A stretch of 55,979 bases of DNA, filler included, from Jimgerdemannia flammicorona (taxonomy: Eukaryota): assembly GCA_003990765.1 (NCBI GenBank). It is 3 parts of 3 records of this genome, joined end to end, with 100 filler letters (N's around TTAATTAATTAA, not from the genome) between each part and the next. Parts side by side here need not be neighbours in the genome. Positions count along the whole stretch, not along the records: positions 1 to 18,597 come from RBNJ01002167.1; 2 more parts are not named here. One strand, 5' to 3'. The notes beneath the pieces are model-generated. The model saw only the letters and a list, made by a program, of their open reading frames with translations. It did no database searches and was not told the origin of the DNA. Position numbers and translations under genes: made by a program. This document shows, piece by piece, positions 1 through 52,496 of the stretch. Position 1 is the stretch's first letter. Each line of letters begins with the position of its first letter.

Positions 1-184
1 ACACAATCCCTTGCAAGCAATCTAAGAGATAACAAGACAGTTAAAGATAAGAAGTTTGAGGACTATAAGACCTTGAGAAGGCACTCCAATAAGAACTTGC
101 TTATAACAAACTTGAGTTAGTCTAAGAGATACACCTTGAAGAGAATCTGGTGTATTTGAAGGACTCAGCGACCACTACATAACA
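1..184 (+). repeat. 3' end (R/U5) of a family-A Gypsy LTR, truncated by the window start and inserted in the family-E element
   Basis: Reverse complement of 7236-7420 and 14473-14660; ends ...ACCACTACATAACA. Confidence 0.9.
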
Positions 185-6717: not shown

Positions 6718-7654
6718 AAGATATATCTATCACTTATAAAATAAACCAGAGAATTGACCAGTATCTCTAGACCCTTATTCTCAGCTTCTTCTAAGCTCTA
6801 TCAGTTTTCTTATCTCAGTTTCAAGAAACTAATGAGACCCATCTTCAATATATTTAGATATATAAAAGAAACCTTACCTTAATAGAATACTTATTATAAA
6901 TTCACTAACTACAGATCTCTAATATATAATTAGCCAATTACTGTAAAACCTTTCAGCCCTAGAACAGATCTGCATTTATAATACTACTGGTCTATCTTGA
7001 AATAATACCATTGCTGTAAACAAACTCTATATAATCTATAGATAAAATATTACAATACTGACTTAGGCTCAGTTTGCTCTAAATAACTTCTAGAAAATAA
7101 CTATCTCACCTATCTGAGTATTATCAATTATCTTGAAGTTCAGTTCTCTGAAAAAGAAAAAGAGCCACTAGAATAAAGTGATTCAGATATAGAAGAAGAT
7201 AATAGTATAGGTATAGATGCTAAAAATATCCATAGTATCATATAGTGGTCACTGAGTCCTTCAAATATGCTAGATTCTCTTCAAGGTATATCTCTTAGAC
7301 TAACTCAAGTTTGTTATAAGCAAGTTCTTATTGGAGTGCCTTCTCAAGGTCTTATAGTCCTCAAACTTCTTATCTTTAACTGTCTTGTTATCTTTTAGAT
7401 TACTTGTAAGAGATTGTATATAAGTGAACCAGAACTGACTTTATTTCAGAGAAAATAAGAGGGGTATTTATACAAAATATAATTCAATGATTGCTAAGAT
7501 ATAAAGCTAAATATAAATTCTAATAACTAAAATAAAATGCCAGGATAGGAAAAACTGCTAAGTTCCAGAGTTGGCACTGATAGTTGTACAGGTTCAGGAT
7601 ACTGGTATAATTTCAGTAGTACAGGAAAATAGTGCTGAAATAATTCAGTGTTAC

Positions 7655-7792
7655 ATCAGAATACTAGTGCTGGCATTATTTAGTATTATATCAGAATGCT
7701 GGTGCTGACATTATTCAGTATTACATCAGAATACTGGTGCTGGTATTATTCAGTATTACATCAGAATGCTGGTGCTGGTATTATTCAGTATA
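7655..7792. repeat. Four 35-bp tandem repeats in family-A U3 (also at 14891-15028)
   Basis: Unit about ATCAGAATGCTGGTGCTGGTATTATTCAGTATTAC, between the LTR ORF stop and the TATA element (minus-strand GTATAAATACCCC at 7461-7473). Confidence 0.9.
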
Positions 7793-7802
7793 ACCAAGAG
7801 AC

Positions 7803-8618
7803 TTAGAGCAGAATGTTCAGGACCATGGGGGCTTCATTCTCATCATTACTGAAGGAGATGAGATCCGCAAATTCATTGTCATTGTGTAGGTCACATGTTT
7901 TGTATACTTTGATATCATATGGGATAATATCAATGCTGATAATGTCATCATGTTCAGTGGTGGCAGGAAGGAGGTCTGGGGCTCTCCAGTCTATGAGATT
8001 CTCTTCTATGAAATAGGAGACAAATGTGGGGTCTTGGAGAGGTCTAACCTGGATGCTTGGGCCTTAGAATACTGAGATCAATCCTTGCAGGAATTGGTCT
8101 GGGCTGTCCTGGAGGATGGGATGCCAGAAGTCTTCTACTTCATCACTATTGAGGGTAATAGTAGACTGAGCTTCTGTAGCTATCCTGGTTTCTAGTATAT
8201 TGATATGGTGGGATAACAGGTCTCTGAAATCTGAGACTCTAATATACTCCAAGTTAGAGATTGACCATAGTACATGCCTGAAGATCTGATGGATCTTCTT
8301 AGCTGTCCTTGCTTCACATATGTCCATAGGAGTGGCATCTTGTAACTCTTAGGAGCTGGTCTGTAGGAACTTCTGGTAGAGGAGATTTCCTATTTTATAC
8401 TTCTACTATATTTGAAGGCATTCAGTAGCAATGGTGATCCTTGTTTCCATTTCATGGCAGTAGAGGATATAATAATAGGAGTCACCAGTACTCAGGTTGA
8501 TACCAGGAGTCCTTCTTGAGTGGGTCCTCATGGCTCTTCTGATGTCTTGAAATATCCTTTCTTTGACTGAGATGTCTTAGTAGTTCCTTGACCTTGAGGT
8601 TTGGCAAGCAGTAGGTAT
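7803..8618 (-). pseudogene. Family-A LTR-encoded accessory ORF, 3' LTR copy (~270 codons, internal stops)
   Basis: Colinear with 15039-15838; MDICEARTAKKIHQIFRHVLWSISNLEYIRVSDFRDL. Confidence 0.75.
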
Positions 8619-9239
8619 TTTGTTTATGGTAAGTCTTTGAGCTATTTTGGGATTGGTGGGTCTTGTTGGTTGCTGCTACTGTAGTTCCTTAATCCTTCTT
8701 TTATGTTCCTCAAGATACTCATACTGTGGTCACAATGACTCACAGTTGGTCATCATTGCTCATCTTATATACCATATGATCTTCTTGTGCTCCAATCTAG
8801 TGGCTTGTAAGGAAAGGCTGTCTCCTGTACTAATGTCATCATTCTGGGGTCACCATTACATCTTTCTCCTAAAAAAAGATCTTCTCAAGTATCCTTATTC
8901 ATTGGTCCAGTCCTGAAAAATTAGCTGATACTATAACCTCTAGCAAGGGGTCAAAAAGTGGTATTTATGGGCTGACATCTTCTCTTTGTATTTTGGTATG
9001 ATGGTGAAGGGTTGCTCTCTTTATATAGAGCAAGGATCTGATTCTGATCTTGACCAATCAGTTGATAGTTCAAACTCCTCTGGCTTTGAAAGTCTCATGG
9101 ATGAGTAGTTGCTAGTGCTATATCTCTTAGAGAATAGTCCAGACAGATAGCCTGCTGGTCATGGGACATGCTGTTATAATTCACAGACTAGAACCTTACA
9201 GGTAGTTATTATATTTTGCTTCTCTTATATAGATTCATG

Positions 9240-12200
9240 ATACTTCTTGGGTCTGTTCCTATGTACTATGGTAGGCAGTATGGTCTCTGAGATTTTTCTA
9301 AGCCAGAAGATAGTTCTCTTGATATCTTGTATATAGAAGAGTTCTTCCTATTTGGGCTCCAGTTTTTGTGACCATGAGACTTCTACTATATTTTGATACA
9401 GTAGGATCTTTTCTCCAATTTAGATGGGTTCTAGGGTCTTGTGATTCTTTTCTACATTCTTCCTTATCAGTGCTTGTAACTTGATGATGTAATCTTCAGC
9501 CTTCTTTCTGATTTGGTGTAGTTTCCAGATTTCTGCATCAACCCATCTCTAAGTTAGATCTAGATTTGTGGCTGAGGTTTTATCAGAATCTTCTTCTCTA
9601 AAGAGCAGTTCCCTTGGAGTAAAGTGTGTGCTCTGTGACCATATGTCTTATAGGACAGAGAGGGCAGTTGGGAGATAATTATCTCAATTCTCATATGTCT
9701 CTGAGATTTTCGCCAGAATGTTCTTGAGGGTCTTGTTGGTTCTCTCTGTCTGTCCATTTCCTTGAGGGTGATATGCAGTGGTCTTGATGTGCTAGATCTT
9801 GTATTTCTGATACATTATCTCATGGAATCCATTGACAAACTCTGTGCCATGGTCTGTTGTGATTTGTTTTAGTGTCTTGTAGTAGTAGATGATTTCTCAA
9901 TGCAGGAAGTCAGCTATAGAGAGGGCATTGACTTCTTGTAATGCTCCTGCTTCTATCCATTTGGTAAAAAGATCTACAATAACTATAATATAGCAGTTTT
10001 CTGATAGTGTTACTGGTAGTGGCCCAATGATATCTATTGCAATGTGGTAGAAGAGAATAGGCTCAATTCTTGATGACCCAGGTACCAAGTCTTACTGATC
10101 TTGTTTCTGTTTTTGACACTTGTCATACTCTTTGACAAATTGGCACAGGTCTTCTTCCATCTTGGACCACCACATAGTTCTTCTTGCCTTGTTATATATG
10201 TTGATTCCTCCTAGGTATCCTTGCTCATGTACTTCCTTCATTACTTGATACTTCTTGTATTCAGGTATTACTAGCTTTCCTCCTTTTCTGAGTGTAGTGT
10301 TGTCTAGTTCAAACTATTTCCAAGTCTGGTTGATGATGGTGGTTGTCCAGGGTTCAAGGTGGTTGGACATCTTCCACTGCCCAAGATAGCTGATTAATCC
10401 ATAGTATAACTCCTTATTCATGTTGAGTAATCTTGATGGGGGTGTTTCAGAGTGTCCTTGAGAGTGCATCAGTATTGGTATTAGTTCTTCTTGAGCAGTG
10501 CTTGACAGTACAGTCATACTCTTGCAGCCTGTAGATCTATCTAGTATATATTCCTTTGGGGTTCAGAGTGTGGAATAGCCAGACAAGAGCAGAATGGTCT
10601 GTTTGAATGGTGAAGTGTTTCCCAGCTAGGTAGTGAAACTTATCTACTGCCCAAACTACTGCTAAACATTTGAGCTTATATGACTCATAGTTCTGTTCTG
10701 CTTCATAGGTACCTTGGCTTGCATAGGAGATGATATATTCATGTCTATCTTTCTTCTGAGCTAGAACTGCTCCAAGTCCTATAGTACTCGCATCTGTCTG
10801 CAGGATGAATTCTAGATTCCAATCTGGTCTTCTGAGGATAGGTGCTTAGATCAACCTGGTCTTGAGTTCATTGAAGGTTTCTTGGCATTCCTTGGTCCAT
10901 TCAACTTGGTCTCCTTCTTCAGTAGCTCATAGATAGGTGCTGCAATGTTGGAGTATCCTTTGATGAATCTTCTGTAGTAGCTGGCCAGTCCAAGGAAGGC
11001 ATGGACTTCTGTGGTCATTCTGGGTCTCGGGTAGACTGCAATAGCCTCAATCTTCATGGGGTCTGTGTAGATTCCAGTCTGATTGATGAGGTGTCCTAGA
11101 TAGGTGATTTCTTGAGCTACAAACTTGTACTTCTGGGGCTTGATGTAAAGGTCATGCTCCTTGAGCTTCTTGAGAGCTAGCTGTATGTGATTGATATATT
11201 TCTATATAGTATTGCTGAAGATAATCATATTATCAATATAGACAAAGAGCTATTTTCCAATCTCATTGCTGAAGACTCTGTTCATCATTTGCTGGAAACT
11301 TGCTGGAGCATTACACATTCCAAATGGCATTCACAGGTAGATATAAGTGACATCAGGTGTAATGAAGGCTGATTTCTCATTGGTATCTTGAGTGAGACCA
11401 ATCTGATGGAAGCCTGAGAACAGATCCAAGATGGTATAGTATTTGGCTTTGCTTCCAAGAGTGGTAAGGATTTCTTGAATATTTGGCAAGAGCTGCCTAT
11501 CCTTCTTAGTGATGGCATTGAGCTTCCTGTAGTCAATGCAGAGTCTTAGTGCAAACTCTCCAGGCTTGCTTTCTTTCTTTGGGGCAAGGACAATGGGTGA
11601 AGCCCAGGAACTGATAGCTTGCTTGATAATTTCAGCTTCTTCTATTTTCTTGAGTTCTGCTCAGAGTCATTCTCTATAGGTAGGTGGTATAGGTCTGACT
11701 TTCTGGTAGATGGGCTTGGTATCACCAGTGTCAACTTCATGATAGTACTTGGATTCTTGATTGTAGATATCCCTGAAGTCTGTAACAAGTGCTCCTTCAT
11801 TCTGGTGCAGGACCTTGAGAAGTTGTTCTTCCAGGGGAAAGTTTTCTCTAATAGTATATGTGTGCTTGTTCTGGTCCTTGTCTTTCTTGTACTCAAGTTT
11901 GGTGATCTTGGTGATGGTATAGACTCCTCTTCCAGTAAATCCAAAACCTTGTTCTCCTCTCTTGGTCTTGATGAGTTCAATGTCTTCAGCAATCTTGGAT
12001 TTCTTGATTTCATAGATCAGCATCTGGCCAATCCTGTCATACTTCTTGACTTTGAATGGGGTAGTGGGGTTGTGATTCCTAACTATGAGGAAGATCTCAC
12101 CAGTGTAATCAGAGTCAATTACTCCTCCTTCAACTGAGATTTCACTTTTGGCTAGACTGCTTCTGATCTTGATAATTCCAGTATGGTTCTCTGGCAGCTT

Positions 12201-13040
12201 GACTCCAATTCCAGTACCAAGTAGGGTGGTGGTCTGTGGTTTGAGGGTAGCATCTTGAATGCTGGTGAGGTCTATTCCTATGGCTCCTTCAGTCTTATAT
12301 TCTGGGATCTTTGCTTTGGGGTAGAACTTCTTGACCTTAAGGGTGATATCTAGTTCTTGTTCCTCCTCATCATCACTGTCAGCTTGAAGCTCTGGGGGCT
12401 GGTCATCTTCTTTGGCTTTCCTTTTTATTTTGGCAGCTTCTTGCTCATATTTCTGTTGACAGATTTTCCTGACTTCACTGATACAGGACCAGCAGTCATT
12501 CAGGTGTTCAGAGTAGTACATCCTAGTACCATGAGGGCATCTTCCTTGAGGGGCATAGCTATTGATAATCTTATTATACTACTGCTCATCTGTGAGATTG
12601 GGTGTCTTATTCTTATTCTTGTTCACCAAGTGCATAAAGACCTCGGTGTCTTCTTCATCTTCTTCTTCCATGCCTGATAGGACTTCTTTATGGACATTGA
12701 TAGAGACTTGTACCTTTCTTTCTCTATAGTTAATCTGTATCTTCTGGGTATTGAGATCAATGATGGTCTTGGTCTTGTAAAGCCATTGGTTGCTAATGAG
12801 GATGTCATAGTTAGTGGCACTTGTAACAACATGTCTACTGGGATAGTAGCTCCTTCTATCTTGATGGGGACTTCTTGGATTTTGCCAAGGGGGGTAGCTT
12901 ATGTACCATCTGCTGTAACATAGACCATCTTGGTGAACTCTTCAATATTCCAGCCTAGGTGGTCAATTGCCTTCTTACTCATGTGGTATCCTCTAGCACC
13001 AGTATTAATGATGGCATCAAAGATACAGTCTTCAATCTGA
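9240..13040 (-). pseudogene. pol: Family-A pol: protease (~12780-13040), dUTPase, RT, RNase H, integrase
   Basis: AIINTGA (D-T-G decayed), WASPIVL..LCIDYRKLN, LDLFSGFHQ, YIDN (YIDD), FLGLASYYRRFIKGY, IAIDIIGPLP..IVDLFTKWIEA. Confidence 0.92.
11930..12341 (-). CDS. dut: dUTPase domain between protease and RT (family A), open within ORF 11667-12521
   Basis: All five motifs: AIGIDL, RSSLA, GGVIDSDYTGEI, DRIGQML, RGEQGFGFTG. Confidence 0.93.
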
Positions 13041-13099
13041 TATAGGGTATAGGCTGATGTCTTGCACTGGTCTTCAGATTCTTCACCTGAGTTTTCAGA

Positions 13100-14416
13100 T
13101 TCTTTCTATATATTGTGAGCTTCTACAATCTTGTACTCTTGATTCTTGGCAGTAGTTGCAAGTCTTACTCTCAACTGCTATCTAAAGGCAGGGACTTTGG
13201 CTAGCTGTCCAAAAGTAGCATTGACCTTCTGTTCCTTGAGATCCTTGTAGATATCATACTGGTGGATCTTGGTCTTATGCAGCTTCTATTCCTTCTTGCT
13301 TTCACTTTCTCCTGAGACTGAAGTAGTATCTTCAATAATTTGGCAGGCAGCTTCATCTAACTCCATGTCTTGATCAATCTCCTCAGGTTGAATAGTGACA
13401 GCTGGGGTCTTCTTTGGTCTTCCAACTGACTTGCTGTTGCTCTTCTTGTCATAGAGCTTGAACTGGGTTCTGGTACCTTCAGTAGTAGGATAGAATTCAA
13501 GCTTCTCATAGTATTCTTCATCATCAGTATCACCAATCTCCTTGATGACTACTGCATTAGTTTGTTCTCTAGTTCTGCTAGCATTGCTTAGTTGGGCTTT
13601 GTATCTTATTTCAGTTATACAATTCTTTACATAGTTGCCTTCTTCTCTACATCTGAAGCATGTGATATTGCATTCTTCTATAGCAGCTGCAAATCTCTGC
13701 ACTGGTCTCCTGTTGGCACTTCAGACTTCTCTAACAACATTACCAAGATGTGTAGTCATCTCAGCGAACTGCTTGGCAAGTTCCTCCACTGAGTCAGCTT
13801 TGGCTGCCTTGGGGGTAAGTGGGGATGGCTGTCTGTTTACAACTATAGCAGGGTGTCTGGCAGTCCAATATCTCTGTACAAAGATCACTTTCTGATTAAG
13901 GATCAGTACAGCTGGAGTAGACTGGATTGCTAGGGCAATTTCAGGATAAACTCCTTTGAGGAAGATTGAATCCACTATTTGTTCCTTGAGGGCATCATCA
14001 TAGCCAGCCAGGACAATCTGGTGACAGATTTGAGTATAGAATAAGTTGGAATCTTCACTGAGTCCCTGGCAGATTGTATTTAGTTGATCTTTGAGAGCTT
14101 GCTTGATCTCTTCAGTATAGTATATTGTTCTGAGAAAGGCCTTCATGTTAGCAAGTTTGACTATACTATTATTAGTAATAGTGGCTACATTGAACTTATC
14201 TCTGGCAGGTCCTCTGAGGCTGACTGGTAGAAGGGCCAATTGTACATCCACATCAAGGGCTTGTAAAGTAGTAAATTTTTCAAAGTCTTCAATGAGGTCA
14301 GGATTGACTCTTCAGTAGTATATCCATAGAATATAGGGGGATACATTTCTATCTTGTCTTGAATTCTTGTAGGAGTGACTCTTGTAGTCAGGGTAGTTAT
14401 TATAAAGGTTATTCAT
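13100..14416 (-). pseudogene. gag: Family-A gag with CCHC zinc knuckle
   Basis: ORFs 13721-14251 and 13286-13702; CFRCREEGNYVKNC knuckle; lies after the PBS. Confidence 0.85.
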
Positions 14417-14452
14417 TTTTCAGCTTAAAAGTGAGAGATTCATCTTGAATCA

Positions 14453-14469
14453 CCAGCCAATGGGCACCA
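14453..14469 (-). promoter_or_regulatory. Primer-binding site of family A (non-iMet tRNA)
   Basis: TGGTGCCCATTGGCTGG begins 3 nt after the 5' LTR end; TGG is complementary to tRNA CCA. Confidence 0.75.
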
Positions 14470-14472
14470 AGT

Positions 14473-16080
14473 TGTCATGTAGTGGTCACTGAGTTCTTCA
14501 AATATGCCAGATTCTCTTCAAGATATATCTTTTAGACTAACTCAAGTTTGTTTTAAGCAAGTTCTTATTAGAGTGCCTTCCCAAGGTCTTATAGTCCTCA
14601 AACTTCTTATCTTTAACTATCTTGTTATCTTTTAGATTGCTTATAAGAGATTGTGTGTAAGTGAACCAGAACTGACTTTATTTCAGAGAAAATAAGAGGG
14701 ATATTTATACAAAATATAATTCAATGGTTGCTAAGATATAAAGCTAAATATAAATTTCAATAACTAAATAAAATACCAGGACAGGAAAAACTGCTAAGTT
14801 CCAGGGTCAGCACTGATGGTTGTACAGGTTCCGAATGCTAGTATAATTTCAGTGGTATAGGAAAATAGTGCTGGAATAATTCAGTGTTATATCAGAATGC
14901 CAGTGCTAGCATTATTCAGTATTATATCAGAATGCCAGTACTGGTATTATTCAGTATTACATCAGAATGCCGGTGCTGATATTATTCAGTATTATATCAG
15001 AATACCAGTGCTAGTATTATTTAGTATAACCAAGAAACTTAGAGCAGAATGTTCAGGACCATGGGGGCTTCATCTTTGTCATCACTGAAGGAGATGAGAT
15101 CTGTGAATTCATCATCATTGCATAGGTTGTGCATTTCACATACTTCAATATCATGCAGGATGATATCATCATGTTTGGTGGCAGTGGAAAGGAGGTCTGG
15201 GGCTCTCCAGTCTATGAGATTCTCTTCCACAAAATAGAGGACAAATGTGGGGTCTTGGGGAGGTCTAACCTGAATGCTTGGGCCTTGGAATACTGAGATC
15301 AATCCTTGCAGGAATTGGTCTGGGTTGTTCTGGAGGATAGGATGCTAGAAGTCTTCTACTTCATCACTATTGAGAGTGATAGTGGACTGGGTTTCTATAG
15401 CTACCCTGGTTTCTAGTACATTGATACAGTAAGATGACAGATCTCTGAAATCTGAGACTCTAACATACTCCAAGTTGGGGATTGACCATAGTGCATGCCT
15501 GAAGATCTGATGGATCTTCTTAGCTATTCTTGCTTCATGTATGTCCATGGGAGTGGCATCTTGTAACTCTTGGAGGCTGGCCTGTAGGAACTCCTGGTAG
15601 AGGAGATTTCCTATTTCATACTCCTGCCATATTTGAAGGCATTTGGTAGCAATGGTGATCCTTGTTTCCATTTTACAGCAGTAGAGGATATAATGATAAG
15701 GGTCACTAGTACCTAGGTTGACACCAGGAGTCCTTCTTGAACAGGTCCTCATGGCTCTTCTGAGTCTTGGAATATCCTTTCTTTGACTGAGATATCTTGG
15801 TAGTTTCTTGACCTTGAGGTTTGGCAAGCAGCAGACATTTCATTTGTGGTAAGTCTTTGAGCTATTTTGGGATTAGTGGGTCTTATTGGTTACTGCTACT
15901 GTGGTTCCTTGATCCTTCTTTTATATTCCTCAAGATATCTATACTGTGGTCACAATGACTCACAGTTGGTCATCATTACTCATCTCATATGCCATATGAT
16001 CTTCTTGTGCTCTGATCTGATAGTTTGTAAGGAAAGGCTGTCTTCTGTACTAATGTCATCATTCTGGAGTCACTGTTATA
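14473..16080 (-). repeat. Family-A 5' LTR (1608 bp)
   Basis: Ends ...TGACA before the PBS; direct repeat of 7236-8860. Confidence 0.93.
15039..15838 (-). pseudogene. Family-A LTR-encoded accessory ORF (~266 aa reconstructed; one 1-nt deletion and one TAG)
   Basis: ATG at 15838; restoring the base present in the two other LTR copies joins MSAACQTSRSRNYQDISVKERIFQDIRRAM to ORFs 15345-15827 and 15039-15302; acidic C-terminal tail. Confidence 0.8.
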
Positions 16081-16143
16081 ATAGATACTATAATGATGAT
16101 TAAAAGAAAGTCTGGAGACAAACTACTCTTTAGTGAGAGCTGA

Positions 16144-17025
16144 TGTAATAAGTAAATAATGTAGTATAGTTTGATAATATGAATACTCAGTATAGTATAG
16201 TTATTCATATCTGGTTACCCATATATGCCATTACTTATAATTAGCTAAATATACTAAATTAGATTTATTGATCTGTATCCTAAATATATACTTAGTGCTC
16301 CCAAATGAGTTGAATCAATTCAAATCAAATCGAATTGAGGGTTAAACAAGTCAAATCGAATTGGGGATTTTTCAATTCAAATCAATTTGAATCAAATCAA
16401 AAGTCAAATTGAATTGAGGGTCTGATTCGAACCCTAAATTTCAAAATGCAATAACTCAGCGTAAACTCATCTAAATCTAACGTACTTTAGCTTGTTAGAA
16501 TCACATTAATACAGTGAATCTAACAAGCTAAAATACGTTAAACTTGGATGAGTTTTCGTCGAGTTATTACATTTTGAAAATTAAGGTTTGAATCAAACTT
16601 CGAATTGAATTGGACCCTTGATTTAATTGAATCAAATCAAATTTGGGCCAAATTCGATTCAATTCGATTCATTGGGAGCACTAGATATACTTATGTCTAT
16701 CAGATATATTTGTGTCTATCAGATATATCTGTACTCAATATACTCAATAGATATTCTCAGTTACTCTCTCTCCTAAATAGTATTACTATACATGCTATAG
16801 TTAGCAAACTTTAGCAAAGTAGCAAAGCTGTCTATTTGTATGATATATTTATATATTTTACCAAAAGGCACTTTCTGTTAGTCTGGTTTCAATTATTAGC
16901 CTGGTTTTAATTATTAATCTTGTTTCAATTACTCTCTTATATATAGTTTACTTAGTTCAGATTCAGTCAATATATATATTATTTATAAAGTAAAATTGAC
17001 ACTTTATACTACTAACTTTAACAGA
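16144..17025 (+). repeat. Probable 3' LTR of family E, interrupted by the MITE; right boundary uncertain
   Basis: TGTAAT start after a purine-rich tract that follows the end of the accessory ORF; no partner LTR in the window. Confidence 0.4.
16293..16683. mobile_element. hAT-type MITE (391 bp), near-palindromic
   Basis: TIRs TAGTGCTCCCAA...TTGGGAGCACTA; 8-bp TSD TATATACT/GATATACT; AATCGAATT-like subterminal repeats; long internal inverted repeat. Confidence 0.85.
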
Positions 17026-18597: not shown

Positions 18598-18697
18598 NNN
18601 NNNNNNNNNNNNNNNNNNNNNNNNNNNNNNNNNNNNNNNNNTTAATTAATTAANNNNNNNNNNNNNNNNNNNNNNNNNNNNNNNNNNNNNNNNNNNN
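18598..18697. other. Assembly spacer N44-TTAATTAATTAA-N44
   Basis: Artificial 100-nt linker with stop codons in all frames. Confidence 0.97.
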
Positions 18698-20343
18698 GAG
18701 TCTGAGATTCTGAGGTCTGGGGGAGGGGGTATTTATACTAGTGAGGGGCTATCTGGACTATACTGAATATGGATATAGCACTAAGTGCCTTGCTGAGTCG
18801 AAATGCAGTCACGTAGTATAAGTGTGATCTGATATGTCAAGGGATCGTCTGACTGCTGAGTCAGTTCACAGTCACGTCGTACAAGGCTAATCTATCTATA
18901 CTATGACTGCTAGACTATTTATAGGTTTAGGCACTATCTGGGTAGTCTTCGATGACATCACCATCGATTGCATCATCTCTGATGAAGTAGTCGTCTAGGA
19001 AAAGTGGTTTGCGGATTACTTCTCCTTGTTGGCTGAGGTAATAATACATTGGAACTTCATCTCCATCCCACAGGATAGTATCATCTGTTTCGTATGCTGG
19101 ATAAGGTGTTGGTGGGTGAAGAATGGGTGTACTATCTTCGCTTTCATCGGATTCGCTATCTGCATACCTTCTATAGGTTACAGCACTATGAGTCGCGGGG
19201 TTGTAGTAAGCTGGCGGCTGTGATTCAAGTCGCTCATACTCAGGTGGTGGAGTGGTTGGTTCAATCTCGAGAGTTGTCTGAAGGTACAGGTTGTGTTCTC
19301 CGGTCTCTTCATTGTAGTTGAAGTAATCGGGGATGAATGTGGGTTGGTATTCGTACCAGTGGTCATTGTCCCAATAAGTCTCGTATGCAGTTATGAACTG
19401 TTGTAAGTTCATTGGCAAGGTTGGCAGAGTGATCAGGGTTGGCAGAGATCCTTGGCTAGAGGTCATGTCGGCGTCAGAGGGGTCGTTGTCTTCTGCTTCG
19501 TCTTCATCGAAGTGGATTATATCATAGACGTCCTTCATGGCGTATCCGACTTGAGGCATTTGCAGGATATGGTAATCAGGGTGCGGGAAGGTTCTGTCTG
19601 TGGTTTTGACATACTCGAGGTACTTGTGGTTGATTTCTTGTATCATGTCATCGATTTGGCCGTAGGACAGGGTAGCAACCATTTTGCTGGTAGTGACTCG
19701 GAGGCGGGGAATAAAGGTGTTGTACTCATAGAAGAGTTCTCGATTTTTGCAGGCGATGAGCTTCTGGTGTTGAGACATCTGGGTAATGTCTGTATCATGG
19801 TGGTGTTCGACCATGTCTTCCAGGAGGCAGCTGATCTGGTAGTAGCTTGAGATTTGTCCGATTCGGTAGGCCTCGCTAAGCATGTTCAGGGCGTTCCATC
19901 AGGCTTCCACGAAGTAGAGGGGGGCCAGGCTATGGATATTCATGAGGGGCAGAGGGGGTGTGGCTCAGTTGACAATGGCATTCCAAATGTCAGTGCGGAT
20001 GCAGTTGTAGATCTCAGTAGTCATGTTTGTGTGTTTGGAAGTTGTGGTTGTTGTTTGTTTTGGTTCTCTGACTTGACACGTCTCGGTGCTCAGTATATAT
20101 GCATTTGGTCCTGATTGGTAATGTTCCATTTGTGTAGATCTTGTGTTCCGTGACTTCGTATTGACTCAGCTTTGTGTGCTGTGACTTCGGTTTGACTCAG
20201 CTTTGTGCGCTGTGACTTCGGTTTGACTTAGCTCCATGATCAAGCAGGTGATTTCCAGATTTGTTCGGAGGTCGCATGTGATTTCAGTGGCTTGTTCAGA
20301 GGGTGACGTATAATTTCAGTGGCTTGGGGGTTGTGTGCTTACA
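18698..20343 (-). repeat. Family-B LTR (5' or solo, cut by the gap), inserted antisense into a family-B integrase
   Basis: Reverse complement of 21301-22850; starts TGTAAGCACAC at 20343 with no PPT upstream. Confidence 0.92.
18927..20024 (-). CDS. Family-B LTR-encoded accessory protein, copy 1 (365 codons; the 318 aa at 18927-19883 remain open)
   Basis: 1098 nt, same length in all three LTR copies; two TGA in the first 42 codons; helical N-terminal domain plus acidic, Pro/Tyr-rich tail. Confidence 0.8.
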
Positions 20344-21300: not shown

Positions 21301-23301
21301 TGTAAGTGCACAACCTCCAAGCCACTGAAATTACACATCACCCTCTGAACAAAGCCACTGAAATTATACGTGACCTCCGAACAAATCTGGAAATCACCTG
21401 CTTGATCACGAAGCTGAGTCAAACCAAAGTCACAGCGCATAAAGCTGAGTCAATACGAAGTCACAGAACACAAGATCTATACAAACGGAACCTTACCAAT
21501 CAGGACTAAATGCATATACTGAGCACCAAGATACGTCGAATCAGAGAACCAAAACAAACAACAAACCACAACTTCCAAACACACAAACATGACCACTGAG
21601 ATCTATAACCGCATCTGCACTGACATTTGGAATGCCATTATCAACCGAGCCACACTCCCTCTGCCCCTTATGAATATCTATAGTCTGGCACCCCTCTACT
21701 TCATGGAAGCCTGATGGAATGCCCTGAACATGCTTAGCGAGGCTCACCGAATCGGACAAATCTCAAGCTACTACCAGATTGGCCGCCTCTTGGAAGACAT
21801 GGTCGAACACCACCATGATACAGATATTACCCAGATGTCTCAACACCAGAAACTCATTGCCCGCAAACATTGAGAACTCTTCTATGAGTATAACACCTTT
21901 ATTCCCTACCTCCAAGTCACTACCAGTAAAATGGTTGCTACTCTGTCCTATGGCCAAATCGATGACATGATACAAGAACTCAACCACAAGTACCTCGAAT
22001 ACATCCAGACTACAGACAGAACCTTCCCGCACCCTGATGACCACATCCTACAAATGCCTCAAGTCAGATATACCATGAAGGACATCTACAATATAATCCA
22101 CTTTGATGAAGACAAAGCAGAAGACAATGATCCCTCTGACGCTGACATGACCTCTAGCCAAGGATCTCTGCCAACCCTGATCACATCGCCAAACTTACCG
22201 ATGAACTTGCAACAGTTCATAACTGCATACGAGACTTATTGGAACAATGACCACTGGCACAAATACCAACCCACATTCACCCCCGATTACTTCAATTACA
22301 ATGAAGAGACCGGAGAATTCAACCTATACCTCCAGACAACCCTAGAGATTGAACCAACAACCCCACCACCTGAGTATGAGCGACATGAACCACAGCTGCC
22401 AGCTTACTACAACCCTGCAACTCATAGTGCTGTAACCTATAGAAGGTATGCAGACAGTGAATCCGATGAAAGCGAAGACAATACACCCATCCTTCGCCCA
22501 CCAACACCTTATCCAGCATATGAAACAGATGATGCTATCCTGTGGGATGGAGATGAAGTCCCAATGTATTACTACCTCAGCCAACAAGGAGAAGTAATCC
22601 GCGAACCACTCTTCCTAGATGACTACTTCATCAGAGATAATGCAATCGATGGTGATATCATTGAGGACTACCCAGATAGTGCCTAAACCTATAAATAGTC
22701 CAGCAGTCATAGTATAGTTAGATTAGCCTTGTACTACATGACTGCATTCCGACTCAGCAAGACACTTAGTGCTACATCCATATTCAGCATAGTCCAGATA
22801 GCCCCTCACTAGTATAAATACCCTCTCCCCCAGACCTCAGAATCTCAGACTTGAACAATCCGAACACAACTCCTGAGCACTTCCCCACAATATCCCTTCA
22901 TATAACTACTCCTAGTATAGCAATATCATGAATAGCGAATAAACCTATTTAATAACCCACAAACCACTCTTAAGTAAATCCGCTCCCCGTTAGGTCCTAC
23001 TTCTAACCCCGTCATGAAATTTCCTAATTGGGTATTGTCTGCAGTGATACGCCAATTCAACTAAGCTAGTCTTAGTTTCTTGAACTTCCTGAAATACGGA
23101 AAATCCTGAATATCCAGAACTAGTCCAGAAAAGGACTTTGGTTGAGACGTCAACCCAATCTTGAAATCAATAAGTATAGAGGATGTACTCCATATGAAAT
23201 TGATCTTGACCATAAGAAAACGGTCTTCCAGAACATCCAGAATATCCAGAAAACCCTTTCAGAACTACGTAATGGTCACCCTAAAAAGTAACCCTCTTAC
23301 A
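21301..23301 (+). repeat. Family-B 3' LTR (2001 bp)
   Basis: PPT AAAAAGAGGAGAG immediately upstream; TGTAAG...CTTACA termini; TATA-like GTATAAATACCC at ~22812. Confidence 0.93.
21589..22686 (+). pseudogene. Family-B LTR accessory ORF, copy 2
   Basis: 1098 nt in one frame with two TGA; YYQIGRLLEDM...IARKH*ELF. Confidence 0.8.
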
Positions 23302-29000: not shown

Positions 29001-31538
29001 TTAGTTTATTCTCTGGTTCTGATAGTATTACTTGGTTGGGCTTTGCATCTTGTTTCAGTTATGCAACTCTTTATATAGTAGCCTTCTTCTCTATATCTAA
29101 AGTATGTAATATTATATTCTTCTATAGCAACTGCAAATCTCTGTACTGATCTTCTGTTGGTACTTCAGACTTCTCAACAACATTACCAAGATGTACAGTC
29201 ATCTCAGCAAACTGCTTGGTGAGTTCCTCTACTGGATTAGCTTTGGCTGTCTTGGAGATAGATAGGGATGGTTATCTGTTTACAACTATAGTAGGTATGA
29301 TATTAGTTGACTTTGATGGCTCTATCTTGATACTAGTTATTTTCTCTATTGAGTATTCAGCAGAGTGTCTGACAGTCCAATATCTCTATGTAAAGACCAC
29401 TTTCTGGTCAAGGGTCAGAGCAGCTGGGGTAGACTGGATTGCTAGGACAATTTCAGGGTAAACTTCTTTGAGGAAGGTTTAATCTGCTATATGTTCCTTG
29501 AAGCCAAGATAATCTGGTGGCAGATTCAGGTGTAGAATAAGTTGGGATCTTCACTGAGTCTCTGGCAGATAGTGTTGAGTTAATCCTTGAGAGCTTGCTT
29601 AATCTCTTCAGTATAGTATATATATAGTTCTGAGGAAGTTCTTCATGTTGGCCAGTTTAGCTGCACTAGTATCAACAATGGTAACTATATTGAACTTGTC
29701 TCTGGTGGATCCTCTGAGGCTGACACAATTGTATATCCATGGTAAGGGCTTATATGGCAGCAAATTGTTCAAAGTCTTCAATAAAGATCAGAATTGACTC
29801 TTCAGTTATATATCCATAGAATGTAGGGGGACACATTTCCATCTTATTTTAAATTCTTACAAGGGTAACTCTTATAGTCAGGGTAGTTATTATGGTGATT
29901 ATTCATTTTTCAGCTTAAAAGTGAGGAATTTATCTTGAATCACCAGTCAATGAGTACCAAGTTATCATATAGTAGTTGCTGAGTCCTTCAAATACATCAG
30001 ATTCTCTCTAAGATATATCTCTTAGACTAACTATAAGTTTGTTATAAGCAAGTTCTTATTGAAGTATCTTCTCAAAATCTTATAGTCCTCAAACTTCTTA
30101 TCTTTAAACTGCCTTATTATCTCTTAGATTGCTTGTATAGAATTGAGAGTAAGTAAACTAGAACTGACTTTATTTCAAAGGAAATAAGAGGGGTATTTAT
30201 ACAAAATATAATTTAATAGTTACTAAGTTATAAAGCTAAATATAAATTCCAATAATCAAATAAAATATGGAATATAGAAAACTATAGTTGTAAGTACAAG
30301 TTTAAGTGTCTGTACAAATGGTTGCATAAGTCCAGAATGCCAGTAGAATTTCAGTAGTATAGGAAAAGGATATCAGAAGAATTTCTGAGTTATGCAAGAT
30401 CAGAATACTAGAAGAATAACAATTATATAGAAAAAGGATGCTGGTAGAATTCAGTGTTATCAAAAACTTAAAGCAGAATGTTTAGGATCATGGGGGCTTC
30501 ATCTTCATCACTATCATTAAGGCCAGAGGTCAGAGATAAGATATCTTCAAAGGGCAAATGTTTTGTATTTCACATATATTACACAGGATGATGTCATTGC
30601 TGATGATATTATCATAAGAAGTATCATCTCATTTAGCAGTAGCAGAGGCTCTCCAATCTATAACATTCTCTTCTATAAAATAAGGAACAAATATGGAGTC
30701 TTAGAGAGGTCTAATCTAGATACTAGGGTCTTGGAATACTGAGATCAATCCTTACAAGAACTGATCAAGATTGTCCTCAAAGATGGGATTCCAGAACTCT
30801 CCTATCTCATTACTATTAAGAGTGATAGTAGACTGGACTTCTGTGATCACTATAGCCTCCAGTGCATTGGTATAGTGGGCTGACAGTTTCTTGAAGTCTG
30901 AGATCCTAGTATACTCTAAGTTAGGAATCAACTATAGTATATGTCTGAAGACCTGATGAATCTTCTTTACTATCCTTATTTCACATATATCCATAGAGAT
31001 AGTATCTTGAATCTCCTGAAGACTGGCCTGAGAGAATTTCTAGCAGAGGAGGTTTCCTATTTTATACTTCTACCATATCTAGAGGCATTTGATAGCAATA
31101 GTAATCCTTGTTTCTATTTCATAGCAGTAGAGGATATAATGATAAAGGTTGCCAGTATCTAGGTTGAGGCTAGGAATCCTTCTTGTGTAGATCCCTATAG
31201 CTCTTCTGATGTCTTGGAATATCTTTTGTTAGACTGAGAGATCTTGGTGGTTCCTGGACCTTAAGGTTTGGCAAGCAGCAGGTATTTTATTTATAGTAAG
31301 TCTTTAGAACTATTTCTGTGAGTTTTGTTTGGATTGCTACTACTGCAGTTTCTTGATCCTTCTTTTATATTTCTTTGGATGTCTGTCTTATGATCACAAT
31401 AACTCATGGTTGGTCATTATTGCTCATCTTGTAGTCTGAATGAGTTATGCTATATGATCTTCTTATGCTCTAATCTGGTAGCTTATAAGGAAAAACTGTT
31501 CTCTATACTGATGTCATTATTATAAAGTCACCATTATA
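26025..31538 (-). mobile_element. Second family-A element (5' LTR 29963-31538, gag, PR, dUTPase ~27350-27773, RT, part of RNase H); more decayed, cut by family C
   Basis: Colinear with 10560-16080. Confidence 0.92.
30468..31285 (-). pseudogene. Family-A LTR accessory ORF, third copy (divergent subfamily)
   Basis: Colinear with 15039-15838; many stops. Confidence 0.7.
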
Positions 31539-37391: not shown

Positions 37392-37411
37392 AAAAAAAAA
37401 AAAAGGTATAC

Positions 37412-49036: not shown

Positions 49037-51113
49037 AGTAATAGCAGTTATAATCTGGAGTTCTTTGAGCAGATTACTAGACTGAACAACAGACCAGCTT
49101 AGTAGTGCTTTCAATATAGCTATTGTAATGTAGCAGACACTTACTCTTGAAAGTATGTCGGATTTCTATATCTTGAAAACTTGATCTTCTCTGACTCCTC
49201 AGAGTCCTTTGAGTTGCAGGGGAGGGTGGGTGAGTTCGAAGTGTATCTGCCTGCAGGCTTACTAGTTCCTTTGCTATCTCTTTGCTTTGAACTATTTCAA
49301 TCTGAGGTTTATTCACTCAAAGATACTGAGTTATTTATACAAGTTTGCTAGCTATGAGATGGTTACTGAGTTACGTGGCTAAGTTATGAATCATTTAACA
49401 CTTTGCAAAATATTTCACCAGTTGCAAAATGCTATACTATATTGAGAAGCTCGATCTTGCACTTTGTGAAATATTTAGCAAATGGCAGAATCGAGGACTG
49501 CTAACTATGTGGCTATACTACTTTGGGACTGGGTGCGATCAAGTGTCTGTTCTCTATTTCCTTCTTCCAAATCTGGCTATACCATTACAACTTCCTCCTG
49601 AATAGATGATCTTATCCCTAAAGCATCTATTCAAACTCTCAAGCTTCAATGGTCTGTATGGTCTTGTATTGTGCAATTTGTTGTATTACTGTTTCCCAAT
49701 GGTATCATCTGACTTGATCGAAGTCTGAGGGAGTCACTCCTTGCAGGTGGGCTAGTGCTGATTCATCCTCTTGGAATAGCTTGTAGATTCTCTTAGCAAT
49801 GGTGATCTGGGAATAGGAGAGCTGACATTCTGTGATCCAATTTTCTTTGGTCATTTCTGGGTCTTGGTTGAGTACTTGGCCAAGTTTGAAGTACTCTTGA
49901 AATTCGTTTCGATGCTGATAGGCTTTAAAGTGTGAGATTCGAGAGAGATGAGTCTATATGATGCTTTGGATACTGTCATAAGACTCCTCTATGGTCAGAG
50001 GCTTGGTGGTGCACTATTGTCTCTTGATGGCTCTTTGGGCAGTACTAGTGATCTTGAGTGCCATCGCAGTACTTTTGTTACTAGTTATTATATTTCTTGA
50101 GTCAGTTTCAGTGAATGGTGGTGGAGATTATTGTGCCTGAGAGTTTTCATAGCCAAAAGGTAGTCTCTTTTATATCTTGCACAAGGTAAGGTTCTTCCCA
50201 CTTGGGCTCCAGTTTTCGTGACCATGAAGCTTCTACTATATTCCAATATACCAGGACTTTGTCTCCTATCTTAATAATCTCTGAGGGTTTGTGGGTCTTT
50301 TTTGCATTCCTCCATTATAGTGTCTGCGCCTTGGTTATGTAATTCTCAGCCTTCTTCCTGATTTGGTATAGTCTCCATATTTCCATGTCCATGCATTTCC
50401 ATATAGCATCTCCATTGGATGATAGGGTTCCCTGAGAACATTCTTCTCTGAATAGTATTTCTCGAGGGGTAAAGTGGATATTTTGTGATCAAATATCCTG
50501 GAGAGCAGATAATGCTATTGGCAGATAGTGATCCCAGTTCTCATAGTTATCGCAGATCTTGGCTATAATATTCTTGAGGGTTTTGTTGGTCCTTTCTACT
50601 TATCCATTTCCTTGAGAGTGATATGCTGTGGTCTGAATATGCTGGATCTTGTACTTCTTGTAGAGAACTTTGAAGAACTGATTCACAAATTCTGTTCCTC
50701 TATCTGTAGTTACTTGTGTGGGGGTCTTGAACCAGCAGATGATTTCCTTGTAGAAGAAATCAGTGATTGACTGTGCATTGGCTTCCATAAGGGGTCCTGC
50801 TTCTATCCATTTTGTAAAAAGGTCTATGATGACAATGATGTATCGGTTGCCAGTCAAAGTCAAGGGTAGAGGGCTGATTACATCCATTGCAATGTGGGCA
50901 AATGGTACTGGTTCTATGTATGCTGATCCTGGGGCTCAATTTTGTTGGTCTTGTTTCTGTTTCTAGTATTTGTCACAGGTCTTGACGAATTGTCTGATAT
51001 CTTCCTCCATCCCTGGCCACCATATTGTTCTTCTTGCCTTATCATATGTATTTGTTCCTCCTAGATGGCCAAGTTCATGTACTGATTTCATCACTTGCTC
51101 CTTCTTGTGTTCT
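49037..51113 (-). mobile_element. Family-D Ty3/Gypsy 3' part: integrase (50160-51113), accessory ORF, PPT, short 3' LTR (~49037-49589)
   Basis: HELGHLG..WWPGMEEDIRQFVKTCDK, IDLFTKWIEA, TDRGTEF, KLEPKWEEPY; PPT AGGAGGAAG then TGTAATGG. Confidence 0.88.
49627..50064 (-). pseudogene. Family-D accessory ORF between integrase and PPT (146 codons, four internal stops, no frameshift)
   Basis: MALKITSTAQRAIKRQ...EFQEYFKLGQVL...LSYSQITIAKRIYKLFQEDESALAHLQGVTPSDF. Confidence 0.75.
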
Positions 51114-51398: not shown

Positions 51399-52496
51399 AT
51401 GACCACTGAGATCTATACCTGTATCTACACTGACATTTGGAATACCATTGTCAACCGAGTTACATCCCCTCTATCCCTCATAAATATATATAGCCTAGCA
51501 CCCCTCTACTTCATGGAAGCCTGATGGAATGCTCTGAACATGCTTAGCGAGGCTCACCGAATCGGACAAATCTCAAGCTACTACCAGATCGGCCACCTCC
51601 TGGAAGACATGGTCAAACACCACCATGATACAGACATTACCCAGATGTCTCAACACCAGAAGCTCATTGCCCGCAAACATCGAGAACTCTTCTATAAGTA
51701 TAGCATCATTATTCCCTACCTCTGAGTTACCACCAGCGAAATGGTTGCTACTCTATCCTATGGCCAAATTGATGACATGATACAAGAAATCAATCACAAG
51801 TACCTCGAGTATGTCAAAACCACAGACAGAACCTTCCCACACCCCAATGATCACATCCTGCAAATGCCCCAAGTCGGATATGCCATAAAGGACATCTATG
51901 ATATAATCCACTTCGATGAAGATGAAGCAGAAGACAATGATCCCTCTGACACCAACATGACCTCTAGCCAAGGATTTCTGCCAACCCTGATCACTCCACC
52001 AACCTTGCCGATGAACTTACAACAGTTCATAACTGCATATGAGACTTATTGGGACAATGACCACTGGTACAAATACCAACCCGCATTCACCTCCAATTAC
52101 TTCAACTACAATGAAGAGACCAGAGAACACAACCTGTACCTCCAGACAACCCTCGAGATCGAACCAACCACTCTACCACCTGAGTACGAGTGACATGAAC
52201 CACAGCCGCCAGCTTACTACAATCCTGCAACTCATAGTGCTGTAACCTATAGAAGGTATACAGACAGCGAATCCAATGAAAGTGAAGACAATATACCCAT
52301 CCTTCATCCACCAACACCTTATCCAGTCTATGAGACAGACGATGCTATCCTGTGGGATGGAGACGAAGTTTCAATGTATTATTACCTCAGTAAACAAGGA
52401 GAGGTAATCTGCGAACCACTCTTCCTAGACGACTACTTTATCAGAGATGATGCAATTGATGGTGATGTCATTGAAGACTACCCAGATAGTGCCTAA
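51399..52496 (+). pseudogene. Family-B LTR accessory ORF, copy 3
   Basis: 1098 nt in one frame with three TGA stops. Confidence 0.8.

Follow-up and report, generated by a model that had tools for sequence, protein, structure and literature searches.

One LTR of a dUTPase-bearing Ty3/gypsy element in the Jimgerdemannia flammicorona genome holds a 266-codon reading frame that is, with a probability of roughly 0.88, the decayed copy of a real accessory gene lying wholly inside U3. Judged by comparison with its relatives, the gene is conserved at the protein level between element lineages that have diverged, and intact versions of it exist elsewhere. In the window – the whole stretch of 55,979 nucleotides that was analysed, filler included, joined from three parts of assembly GCA_003990765.1 – the copies are pseudogenes that have decayed after insertion almost only by transitions. 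In retroviral-type replication both LTRs receive their U3 from the 3′ end of the genomic RNA, and each insertion therefore carries two copies of the gene, of which a solo LTR would keep one.

The carrier element and its LTRs

The element that carries the frame (copy A2; Table 1) has direct LTRs that begin with TG and end with CA and are flanked by a target-site duplication. The termini of A1 and A2, TGTAAT... and ...ATGACA, are partly decayed; A2 starts with TATAACAGTGAC and ends with ...ATGACA, and A1 starts with TGTAATGGTGAC. The cover of A2 by metagenome contigs falls to about zero past position 16091 in four runs. Both a polypurine tract and a PBS-like site are present, as in a Ty3/gypsy carrier; the PBS-like motif also follows the A3 LTR, and Rfam and tRNA scans of the window gave no match. 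Pfam matches on the minus strand run from dUTPase (12578 to 11670, E 1.2e-27) through RVT_1 (11660 to 11334) and RT_RNaseH (10845 to 10540) to Integrase_H2C2 (10313 to 10095), which is the pol order of Ty3/gypsy elements (Metaviridae), with the integrase last. Pfam made no call for a protease in this element, a D(T/S)G-like 'IINTGARG' being spotted by eye only, and none of 2692 long-polyprotein candidates scored against the dUTPase reading frame. The block TGTATAAATACCCCTC around the main TATA box is conserved in A1, in A3 and in L001, a metagenome contig described below, and the 35-bp array next to the frame is shorter in A3 and absent from L001.

Table 1. Features of the U3 reading frames and their LTRs, with positions counted along the window.
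Feature	Position	Strand	Remarks
Family-A 5′ LTR, copy A2	14473..16080	-	1608 nt; 88% identity to 7236-8860
Family-A 3′ LTR, copy A1	7236..8860	-	same element as A2
Family-A LTR, copy A3	29963..31538	-	5′ LTR of a truncated second element
Target-site duplication CTAT	16081..16084, partner 7232-7235	-	read directly
PBS-like TTGGTGCCCATTGG	14457..14470	-	2 nt past the 5′ LTR end
Internal region	8861..14472	-	gag with knuckle-like motif, dUTPase, RT, RNase H, integrase (Pfam, ORFs)
Polypurine tract AGGAGAAAGA	8870->8861	-	abuts 3′ LTR A1
Candidate promoter TATAAAAG	15918..15925	-	putative; 87 nt upstream of the ATG
U3 ORF of A2	15039..15838	-	266 codons, ATG to TAA; basic N-terminus, acidic tail; broken
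1-nt gap (frameshift)	15762..15764	-	compared with A1, A3 and some of the contigs; alignment column 377
In-frame TAG	15345..15347	-	Trp codon in both sister LTRs, in all database homologues covering the site and in nearly all contigs
Tandem array	14867..15027	.	35-bp unit, 4.6 copies; directly past the ORF stop codon
Main LTR TATA box TGTATAAATA	14702..14711	-	within block TGTATAAATACCCCTC
AATAAA poly(A) signal	14677..14682	-	about 20 nt past the TATA box
A1 copy of the ORF	8618->7803	-	ATA in place of the start codon; 5 in-frame stops
A3 copy of the ORF	31285->30468	-	9 stops and 2 broken codons
Family-B LTR ORF, copy Bx	18930..20024	-	365 codons; 2 in-frame TGA
Family-B LTR ORF, copy By	21589..22683	+	in 3′ LTR 21301-23302; 2 in-frame TGA
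Family-B LTR ORF, copy Bz	51399..52493	+	in 5′ LTR ~51114-53172; 3 in-frame TGA
Remnant of a third, more distant ORF version	49708..49953	-	hmmsearch E 2.1e-5; tblastn with P0014

The reading frame and its lesions

The first-pass annotation had described a 266-codon sense-strand frame in U3, ahead of the repeat array and the TATA box, with an acidic tail and two lesions in A2, and on all of these points we agree with it. The frame runs exactly from an ATG (15838-15836) to a TAA (15041-15039) on the minus strand, the ATG lying 242 nt inside the LTR and the stop 328 nt before the TATA box, so that a complete frame stands in U3 upstream of the LTR promoter in the layout of MMTV Sag; the last 60 residues of its product have a pI of 4.1. 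Both lesions stand out against the sister LTRs, and it is because of this 1-nt gap and in-frame TAG that the ORF track splits the frame into pieces at 15889->15749, 15839->15345 and 15344->15039.

Soil-metagenome contigs were compared at both sites. Six sequencing runs are listed, five of them with small shares and none holding RNA, and the contig cover over the LTR tail and the repeat array is thin, those parts being left out of the interpretation. A letter other than that of the TAG is found at 15346 at a depth of 1229.5 of 1234.3 in run X1, 216.5 of 219.5 in X2, 67 of 67 in X3 and 44.7 of 48.4 in X5; the extra base at 15763 is found at 120 of 357.3, 11.1 of 68.2, 5.1 of 31.6 and 0 of 16 in the same runs.

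Comparing the copies does repair the A2 lesions, as had been claimed, but the sister copies are more broken than this implied: all three are dead, A2 with one stop and a frameshift, A1 with five stops and A3 with nine. Their majority reading has a stop at one codon, where two of the three carry TAG. The lack of an open frame in the consensus LTR had been named as one observation that would speak against a gene; we find instead that intact homologues exist and that no stop is common to A1, A2 and A3 across 290 codons, as against 73-179 codons in the other five frames. Three of 1000 column shuffles reach a shared open run of this length, a moderately strong test, and upstream the frame is closed by stops common to the three copies.

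Homologues of the product

Ten database proteins match the A2 product, the intact ones being 247-342 aa long with 41-79% identity. Seven of these homologues came from a first search among 161 candidates (55-77% identity), and a profile search of 1.84 billion representative proteins returned five clusters at 50% identity, three of them additional to the first search, at a best E value of 9e-15. The database homologues were predicted by gene callers, on contigs 778-1625 nt long, and one relative is named 'hypothetical protein'. The intact homologues carry conserved motifs, and the full-length forms (4 of 4) start with MPA or MPP; P0004, of 271 aa, starts MPAARQ... and ends ...LNFLL. Contig L001 has an intact 323-codon ORF with TGTATAAATACCCCTC and AATAAA behind it, the order seen in the window LTRs. 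The contig stops short of both LTR termini and is taken for an LTR on the strength of this shared promoter block.

No Pfam family was found at E up to 1 for five A-family and two B-family proteins, and no chain among the PDB sequences matches the LTR-ORF proteins at the same limit. PHROGs gave one match only (E 0.093), and a scan of IMG/VR gave 65 pattern matches and no relatives. In the Atlas the neighbours of P0004 are all below threshold (best 0.83) and its own model has a pLDDT of 0.35; AlphaFold2 confidence is likewise low, with a mean pLDDT of 38.7 from a 7-row alignment and 46.7 from a 10-row alignment, values that are insufficient for fold comparison. The product shows no relation to the element's own gag (P 0.7).

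A second family and a third version

A larger ORF occupies the corresponding place in family B, whose repeats are marked as LTRs by their ends (TGTAAG...CTTACA), by the polypurine tract that precedes By and by a TATA box past the ORF. Alignment of the two families by hhalign spans 125 columns, joining A 24-151 to B 8-133 with P 8e-4 and a probability of 24%; its score of 33.1 compares with 14.2 ± 2.5 (maximum 25.1) after shuffling, and none of 200 shuffles reaches it, the column shuffle being a lenient null. The two are also reciprocal best non-self matches among 1299 window ORFs (E 0.078 and 0.18). These results support a distant homology between the N-terminal ~125 residues of the family-A product and the larger B ORF, and this apparently collinear N-terminal region is what defines the LTR-ORF superfamily that we propose here.

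The first-pass annotation had aligned the A N-terminus with the stretch of B upstream of a TGA shared by the three B copies, and had argued from this that the TGA is a decayed CGA. The alignment stands for the domain as a whole; the stretch upstream of the common TGA, at codon 42, falls into the register expected, but 8 of 80 shuffles reach its score and it has no significance by itself. At each of the remaining family-B stops the TGA stands opposite a CGA in a sibling copy; descent of the shared TGA from CGA would fit this pattern and is plausible.

The remnant of a third version sits between an integrase at 51175->50603 (Pfam rve and Integrase_H2C2) and a copy of TGTATAAATA at 49341->49332.

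Expression and possible function

How the gene is expressed can be addressed from its upstream region. A2 and L001 share the block GAATATAAAAG, in place of which A3 has AAATATAAAAG and A1 GAACATAAAAG. The TATAAAAG within the candidate region is one 8-nt motif in an AT-rich setting, altered in A1 and with no clear counterpart in family B. We tentatively suggest that the gene may be transcribed from this promoter of its own in U3, using the LTR poly(A) signal, in which case each LTR would be a self-contained unit of ~1.25 kb.

The main alternative, although one on the unlikely side, is the route of sag and nef, in which a spliced subgenomic RNA would be made from the main LTR promoter and would express the copy in the 3′ LTR only, those in 5′ and solo LTRs being silent. 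Retroviruses usually express their 3′-end genes in this way, no canonical TATA precedes the ATG in family B, and the family-A TATAAAAG is, as noted, short and in an AT-rich setting. However, inspection by eye, unscored, of the 240 nt that precede the ATG finds no evident polypyrimidine-AG acceptor, and L001, distant as it is, retains GAATATAAAAG between diverged flanks.

As to function, the first 45 residues have a pI of 11.2-12.0 in P0003, P0004 and P0011 and of 7.8 in P0013; across the A-family proteins profiled the pI of the last 60 residues is 4.1-4.5, and the family-B product has no basic N-terminus. The combination of a basic N-terminus (pI ~12), a helical core and an acidic tail might indicate a nuclear regulatory protein, an assignment that we hold to be doubtful and that is read from the distribution of charge only. 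Such a regulator could be a transactivator of the adjacent 35-bp repeats and promoter, or an RNA-handling or anti-silencing factor. The fuller proposal that each LTR is a self-contained gene with its own TATA, a 270-365-codon ORF and a poly(A) signal, and that all LTRs could express a regulator needed by the element, seems rather unlikely as a whole; if true, hundreds of promoter-equipped orphan reading frames would be scattered through the host genome. The very large orphan gene families envisaged by the first-pass annotation would likewise be a prediction, set against five clusters at 50% identity among the 1.84 billion representatives.

Origin, selection and decay

The U3 frame could also have come from the host, as a captured gene or gene fragment whose database homologues form a cellular gene family. 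Retroelements do take up host sequence, and the DNA context is known for one of the ten database homologues, L001. Passages of the report on fungal dUTPase-bearing elements (PMC2864245) treat the dUTPase, too, as a probable acquisition. Capture is nonetheless very improbable: that sole homologue with DNA context has the LTR promoter block right past its ORF, ORFs related to each other occupy one and the same U3 position in two or three element families of the window, and there are only five clusters among the 1.84 billion representatives, with no Pfam family. Moreover, the LTR is matched by hundreds to ~1,700 short pieces of contig per run, as a repeat should be.

The check proposed by the first-pass annotation, codon-position and synonymous bias, gives a strong result between lineages. 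Over 227 codons A2 and L001 differ at 77, 48 and 124 first, second and third positions (chi-square P 2e-8), and 107 of the changes are synonymous where the null gives 63.4 ± 6.0 (z = 7.3), a value reached in 0 of 2000 simulations; across the comparisons with L001 the synonymous excess has z of 7.3-7.8, again with 0 of 2000. The family-B copies show the same excess (z 4.0-5.0, 0 of 2000), with z of -0.7 to -4.1 in shifted frames. The shifted-frame controls that show no synonymous excess are those for pairs other than the ones with L001. Comparison of A1 or A2 with A3 gives a weak signal (z 1.5-1.9; 152 and 78 of 2000 simulations reach the observed values). Nei-Gojobori dN/dS was dropped in favour of spectrum-matched simulations, since under transition bias a control frame, too, seems constrained: one shifted frame already has a low ratio of 0.37.

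The two LTRs of the full element behave differently. A1 and A2 are separated by 33 synonymous changes against a null of 32.8, and stops have accumulated between them at the neutral rate (5 against 3.5 expected). Since A1 and A2 are neutral and the lineages are under purifying selection, it is the element lineage, rather than this insertion, that selection has acted on, and the protein would appear to serve the element rather than the host at this locus. The 15-nt indel between A1 and A2, which had been offered as a sign of coding, is real (alignment column 976), but it arose after insertion and the differences between these LTRs are neutral, so that it is uninformative on selection.

On the branches leading to the two LTRs, A1 and A2, transitions make up 76 of 80 and 79 of 84 changes. 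Against the contigs of run X1 the window copy shows A or T in place of G or C at 97 sites, and the opposite at 22. When changes are polarised by A3, T>C are as many as C>T, which we read as homoplasy at hot sites.

That the window copies, or some solo LTR copies, have become domesticated host genes is highly improbable, and for these three copies we consider it refuted. A precedent exists in the endogenous Mtv sag genes, which according to the parts of PMC12548423 consulted are often kept intact, possibly to the benefit of the host; here, however, all three copies are broken, and the neutral divergence of A1 and A2 extends both to their synonymous changes and to their stops.

It is scarcely credible, and in our view refuted, that the frame is a chance opening in the purine-rich, T-poor strand of a non-coding LTR, repaired from noisy copies. 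In favour of chance, every window copy has stops, the column-shuffle null already averages 148 ± 35 codons and extends up to 295, and a shifted control frame yields that Nei-Gojobori ratio of 0.37, but chance does not account for intact homologues of the length and identity described, sharing motifs and an MPA or MPP start, nor for the third-position and synonymous excess against L001, which the shifted-frame controls of the other pairs lack.

Relation to known systems and implications

To our knowledge, genes wholly inside an LTR are textbook matter only for MMTV sag, and the literature searched yielded no account of an ORF carried in U3 by an LTR retrotransposon outside the retroviruses. In gene placement MMTV sag is the closest analogue of the accessory gene described here, with a complete frame inside U3 that is present in both proviral LTRs and in solo LTRs, and with a variable C-terminal part. 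The likeness does not extend to sequence, there being no relation to the family-A and family-B proteins (Pfam, E up to 1), nor to topology. Sag is a type II transmembrane glycoprotein, whereas the maximum 19-residue Kyte-Doolittle mean is 0.47-0.86 in the five proteins examined and 0.47-0.74 in those of family A, with no hydrophobic segment, the usual transmembrane threshold being ~1.6. The carrier differs too, being a Ty3/gypsy element without env, of a family seen in soil metagenomes, and not a betaretrovirus. The nef gene of HIV/SIV and bel2/bet of foamy viruses are 3′-terminal accessory genes that share DNA with U3, but these begin upstream of the LTR and only overlap it, in contrast to the family-A gene with its ATG well inside (242 nt). 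Rev, Rex and Tat, regulators with an arginine-rich basic segment and a separate effector segment, serve as a working analogy only, with no sequence or fold match.

Non-retroviral LTR elements of bdelloid rotifers (PMC5408684) and Cer1 (PMC10309623) have an extra gene beside gag and pol; the CERV protein of Cer1 in C. elegans is a regulatory protein needed for export of the genomic RNA (PMC10309623). In the passages of these two reports that we consulted the extra ORFs are named beside gag and pol, with the LTR unmentioned. Fungal Ty3/gypsy elements with a dUTPase include PosPlaTy3-3, -4 and -5 of Postia placenta and elements of Phanerochaete chrysosporium and Tuber melanosporum, in the portions of PMC2864245 consulted, and the dUTPase placement in our elements is as described there, between PR and RT in family A and ahead of PR in family B. 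The text passages of that report place none of the 'add. ORF' of its elements in an LTR, although its figures or supplements may show their position.

The window thus presents a non-retroviral Ty3/gypsy clade with the sag layout, clear in two families and accompanied by the remnant of a third version. LTRs are usually masked and taken as non-coding, and such genes are therefore missed or filed as 'hypothetical proteins'. Dating by LTR-LTR divergence presupposes neutral change; in these elements that is true of the time since insertion and untrue of the comparison between lineages. The layout also provides a testable case, both for what an element may gain from a third protein and for whether solo LTRs can seed orphan genes.

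The carrier element and its surroundings

The window holds a nest of eukaryotic LTR retrotransposons, and the ORF under study sits in the 5′ LTR (A2) of a complete minus-strand element whose 3′ LTR (A1) is 88% identical to it. A 4-bp duplication, CTAT, lies on either side of this element, a polypurine tract (AGGAGAAAGA) directly adjoins the 3′ LTR, and a TGG-type primer-binding motif is found 2 nt past the 5′ LTR. Pfam matches on the minus strand follow the order dUTPase (E 1.2e-27), RVT_1, RT_RNaseH and Integrase_H2C2, which identifies the carrier as a Ty3/gypsy element whose dUTPase lies between protease and reverse transcriptase. The LTR of a second element (A3) shares about 74% identity with A1 and A2, and positions 1-187 (+) hold the final ∼187 nt of a further family-A LTR, which is oppositely oriented and truncated by the start of the window.

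PMC2864245 describes dUTPase-bearing gypsy elements of fungi in which the dUTPase either precedes PR or sits between it and RT. Two placements are likewise seen in related elements of this one window, between protease and RT in family A and ahead of protease in the family-B type, at 55319-55978 (+) and 24502-23789 (-).

The family-A element is flanked by two copies of a third repeat family of ∼1.2 kb, of which there are four copies at 75-88% identity (3410-4593, 5520-6081, 17427-18597 and 42762-43984) and whose ORFs gave no Pfam match. Just outside the 5′ LTR, a short element at 16290-16680 with terminal inverted repeats (GCTCCCAA...TTGGGAGC) and internal palindromic caaatcgaattg repeats looks MITE-like. 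Three successive stop-separated ORFs of 194, 213 and 166 aa at 37336-39067 (-) contain EPEAAA, DAGGGTID and FVGGFS, which we take to be motifs of Hsp70/actin-like ATPases; Pfam gives only a faint HSP70 match (E 0.18), the N run at 37292-37391 cuts the end, and the region could be the remains of a host gene, or a passenger. The segment 44001-48000, with 21-23% G+C against 35-45% in the surrounding transposon sequence, may be native intergenic DNA.

Positions of the LTRs, their internal landmarks and the related ORF copies
Feature	Position	Strand	Remark
5′ LTR (A2)	16080->14473	minus	
Internal region	14472->8861	minus	
3′ LTR (A1)	8860->7236	minus	
A3 LTR	31538->29963	minus	heads truncated second element
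A2, LTR start	16080	minus	
A2, TATAAAAG	15925->15918	minus	
A2, ORF	15838->15039	minus	
A2, tandem array, 35-bp x 4.6	15027->14867		sense order after ORF
A2, TATA box TGTATAAATA	14711->14702	minus	
A2, AATAAA	14682->14677	minus	
A2, LTR end	14473	minus	
ORF-version remnant	49953->49708	minus	between integrase and another TGTATAAATA; weak match to profile core, E 2.1e-5
ORF tail fragment	32791->32690	minus	match to profile tail, E 0.0013
Family-B copy Bx	20343->18699	minus	
Family-B copy By	21301-23302	plus	
Family-B copy Bz	about 51114-53172	plus	

An open reading frame within U3

A minus-strand ATG at 15838 opens a frame of 266 codons that is closed by TAA at 15041-15039, and the order of elements within the LTR places this ORF wholly inside U3, upstream of the repeat array and TATA box, in agreement with the first-pass annotation. 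The 1-nt deletion and the stop reported there to split the frame are both present in A2 (a gap at about 15763 and TAG at 15347-15345), both sister LTRs being unbroken at both sites, and the 15-nt indel separating A1 from A2 is confirmed. The accompanying claim that comparing copies repairs the frame holds for these two lesions, but the sisters are worse off than it implied: A1 has ATA instead of the start codon as well as five in-frame stops, nine stops and two broken codons disrupt A3, and because TAG occurs in two of the three copies at one codon, reading by simple majority does not give an open frame. There is nonetheless a 290-codon stretch of the ORF frame without a stop common to the three copies, compared with 73-179 codons by the same measure in the other five frames, and only 3 of 1000 column shuffles reached a 290-codon run. 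Two more LTR remnants with the TGTATAAATA block, at 49332-50080 (-) and 32183-32923 (-), represent ORF versions that are more distant or more decayed.

Relatives of the predicted protein

Among 5.8 billion proteins, a word-indexed search yielded 161 candidates, seven of them relatives at 55-77% identity, including P0004 (271 aa, full length, MPAARQ... to ...LNFLL) and P0003 (247 aa). When 1.84 billion cluster representatives were searched with a profile, only five clusters matched, three of them new (P0012-P0014, E 4.5e-60 to 9.4e-15). Where the first-pass annotation envisaged very large orphan gene families, these protein libraries contain no more than a few clusters. In the aligned family the MPA/MPP start is conserved, as is a core (WxEYEI, HQxFRHxP, NPxLxDNPDQ, FxGPxI and PYF..E.xIDWR), and the tail is acidic and of variable length. 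One scan of JGI metagenome contigs (315 pattern matches, one relative) provided a single locus, L001. Its ORF of 323 codons is intact, and 176 nt beyond it come the TGTATAAATACCCCTC block and AATAAA that the window LTRs also have.

Past selection and present decay

Over 227 aligned codons (56% protein identity), differences between A2 and L001 number 77/48/124 at the three codon positions (chi-square P 2e-8), the bias that the first-pass annotation had proposed looking for. Because transitions account for 76 of 80 and 79 of 84 changes on the two LTR branches, and the Nei-Gojobori ratio is low in one control frame as well, we used simulations with the same base-to-base substitution spectrum. 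These gave 63.4 ± 6.0 synonymous changes between A2 and L001 against 107 observed, a value reached in 0 of 2000. Comparisons of A1 or A2 with A3 show only a weak synonymous excess (z 1.5-1.9). The difference between A1 and A2 is neutral, with 33 synonymous changes where 32.8 are expected and 5 new stops where 3.5 are, in keeping with decay after insertion. Purifying selection therefore acted on the protein while lineages propagated, but not at the window locus afterwards.

The LTR was also compared with contigs of four public sequencing runs from three studies (three soil metagenomes and one coded organism), in which 188 to 1699 short pieces match it at at least 85% identity. Contig cover ends at the LTR boundary, with zero or near zero beyond 16091. 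Nearly all pieces carry the Trp-giving letter at 15346, and part of them the extra base at 15763. In one run (X1) the window copy has A/T where the pieces have G/C at 97 places and the reverse at 22, showing that it is a member of an abundant family decayed by transitions; only four CpG remain in the A2 LTR, counting both strands.

A1 (7236-8860) and A2 (14473-16080) have diverged by about 12%, with 95% of changes transitions. Parsimony-polarised C>T changes are mostly in CpA context, a polarisation confounded by homoplasy, and the decay could be methylation-driven or RIP-like.

A related gene in family B

The copies of the second LTR family start with TGTAAG and end with CTTACA; By is preceded by an integrase SH3 domain and a polypurine run, and gag, dUTPase and protease lie downstream of Bz. 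N runs at 18598-18697 and 37292-37391 each consist of 44 N, 12 bases and 44 N, and the first cuts Bx. Each copy has a 365-codon frame with two to three in-frame TGA and GTATAAATACCC after it, there are no indels among copies, and synonymous bias is strong (z 4.0-5.0, reached in 0 of 2000; shifted frames, z -0.7 to -4.1). One database relative, P0010, is 64% identical.

The proposed homology between the A N-terminus and family B is upheld by profile comparison, and we accept an N-terminal domain common to the two predicted proteins. The profiles are collinear over 125 columns (A 24-151 to B 8-133, P 8e-4, probability 24%), their score of 33.1 is higher than that of any of 200 column-shuffled controls (14.2 ± 2.5, maximum 25.1), and when the 1299 ORFs of the window were searched with HMMs, A and B were each other's best outside match (E 0.078 and 0.18). 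The signal is carried by B codons 43-140 (1 of 80 shuffles reaches the score). The stretch upstream of the shared TGA (codons 1-41), said also to align with A, does so in the register originally placed but is not significant alone, being equalled in 8 of 80 shuffles. That this TGA is a decayed CGA is plausible, since each of the remaining stops (codons 20, 95, 109 and 265) is a TGA for which a sibling carries CGA; at codon 109 the three copies have CGA, CAA and TGA.

Known arrangements, possible function and possible expression

The retroviral genes nef and bet do no more than overlap U3. The nearest known arrangement is MMTV sag, which lies inside U3 and has a variable C-terminus (PMC12548423); the family-A ORF is alike in placement but unlike in sequence family and membrane anchor. 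Extra ORFs are noted for rotifer elements and Cer1, and a figure of PMC2864245 shows an 'add. ORF'. A literature search of partial coverage found no description of a U3-borne gene in a non-retroviral LTR retrotransposon.

Overall the predicted protein is acidic (pI 4.5-4.9), and its N-terminus is basic, with a pI of 11-12 in three of the four full-length forms. It lacks a hydrophobic segment, and its low-confidence structure models are mostly helical. Our guess, held at low probability, is a nuclear regulatory role; no family or fold in support of it was found in Pfam or PDB sequences.

In LTR elements U3 is present once in the genomic RNA, at its 3′ end, and reverse transcription copies it into both LTRs. 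A 3′-terminal cistron would need its own mRNA. In family A a GAATATAAAAG block is located 87 nt upstream of the ATG; the distant L001 and A3 retain it, and A1 has it with a single change. We tentatively favor a promoter inside U3 and a transcript ending at the AATAAA of the same LTR (probability about 0.35). The main alternative is a spliced RNA resembling that of sag, which we regard as only slightly less likely. Since U3 is copied to both LTRs, each insertion gains two copies of the gene and a solo LTR keeps one; with an internal U3 promoter and its own AATAAA, every LTR would be a self-contained unit.
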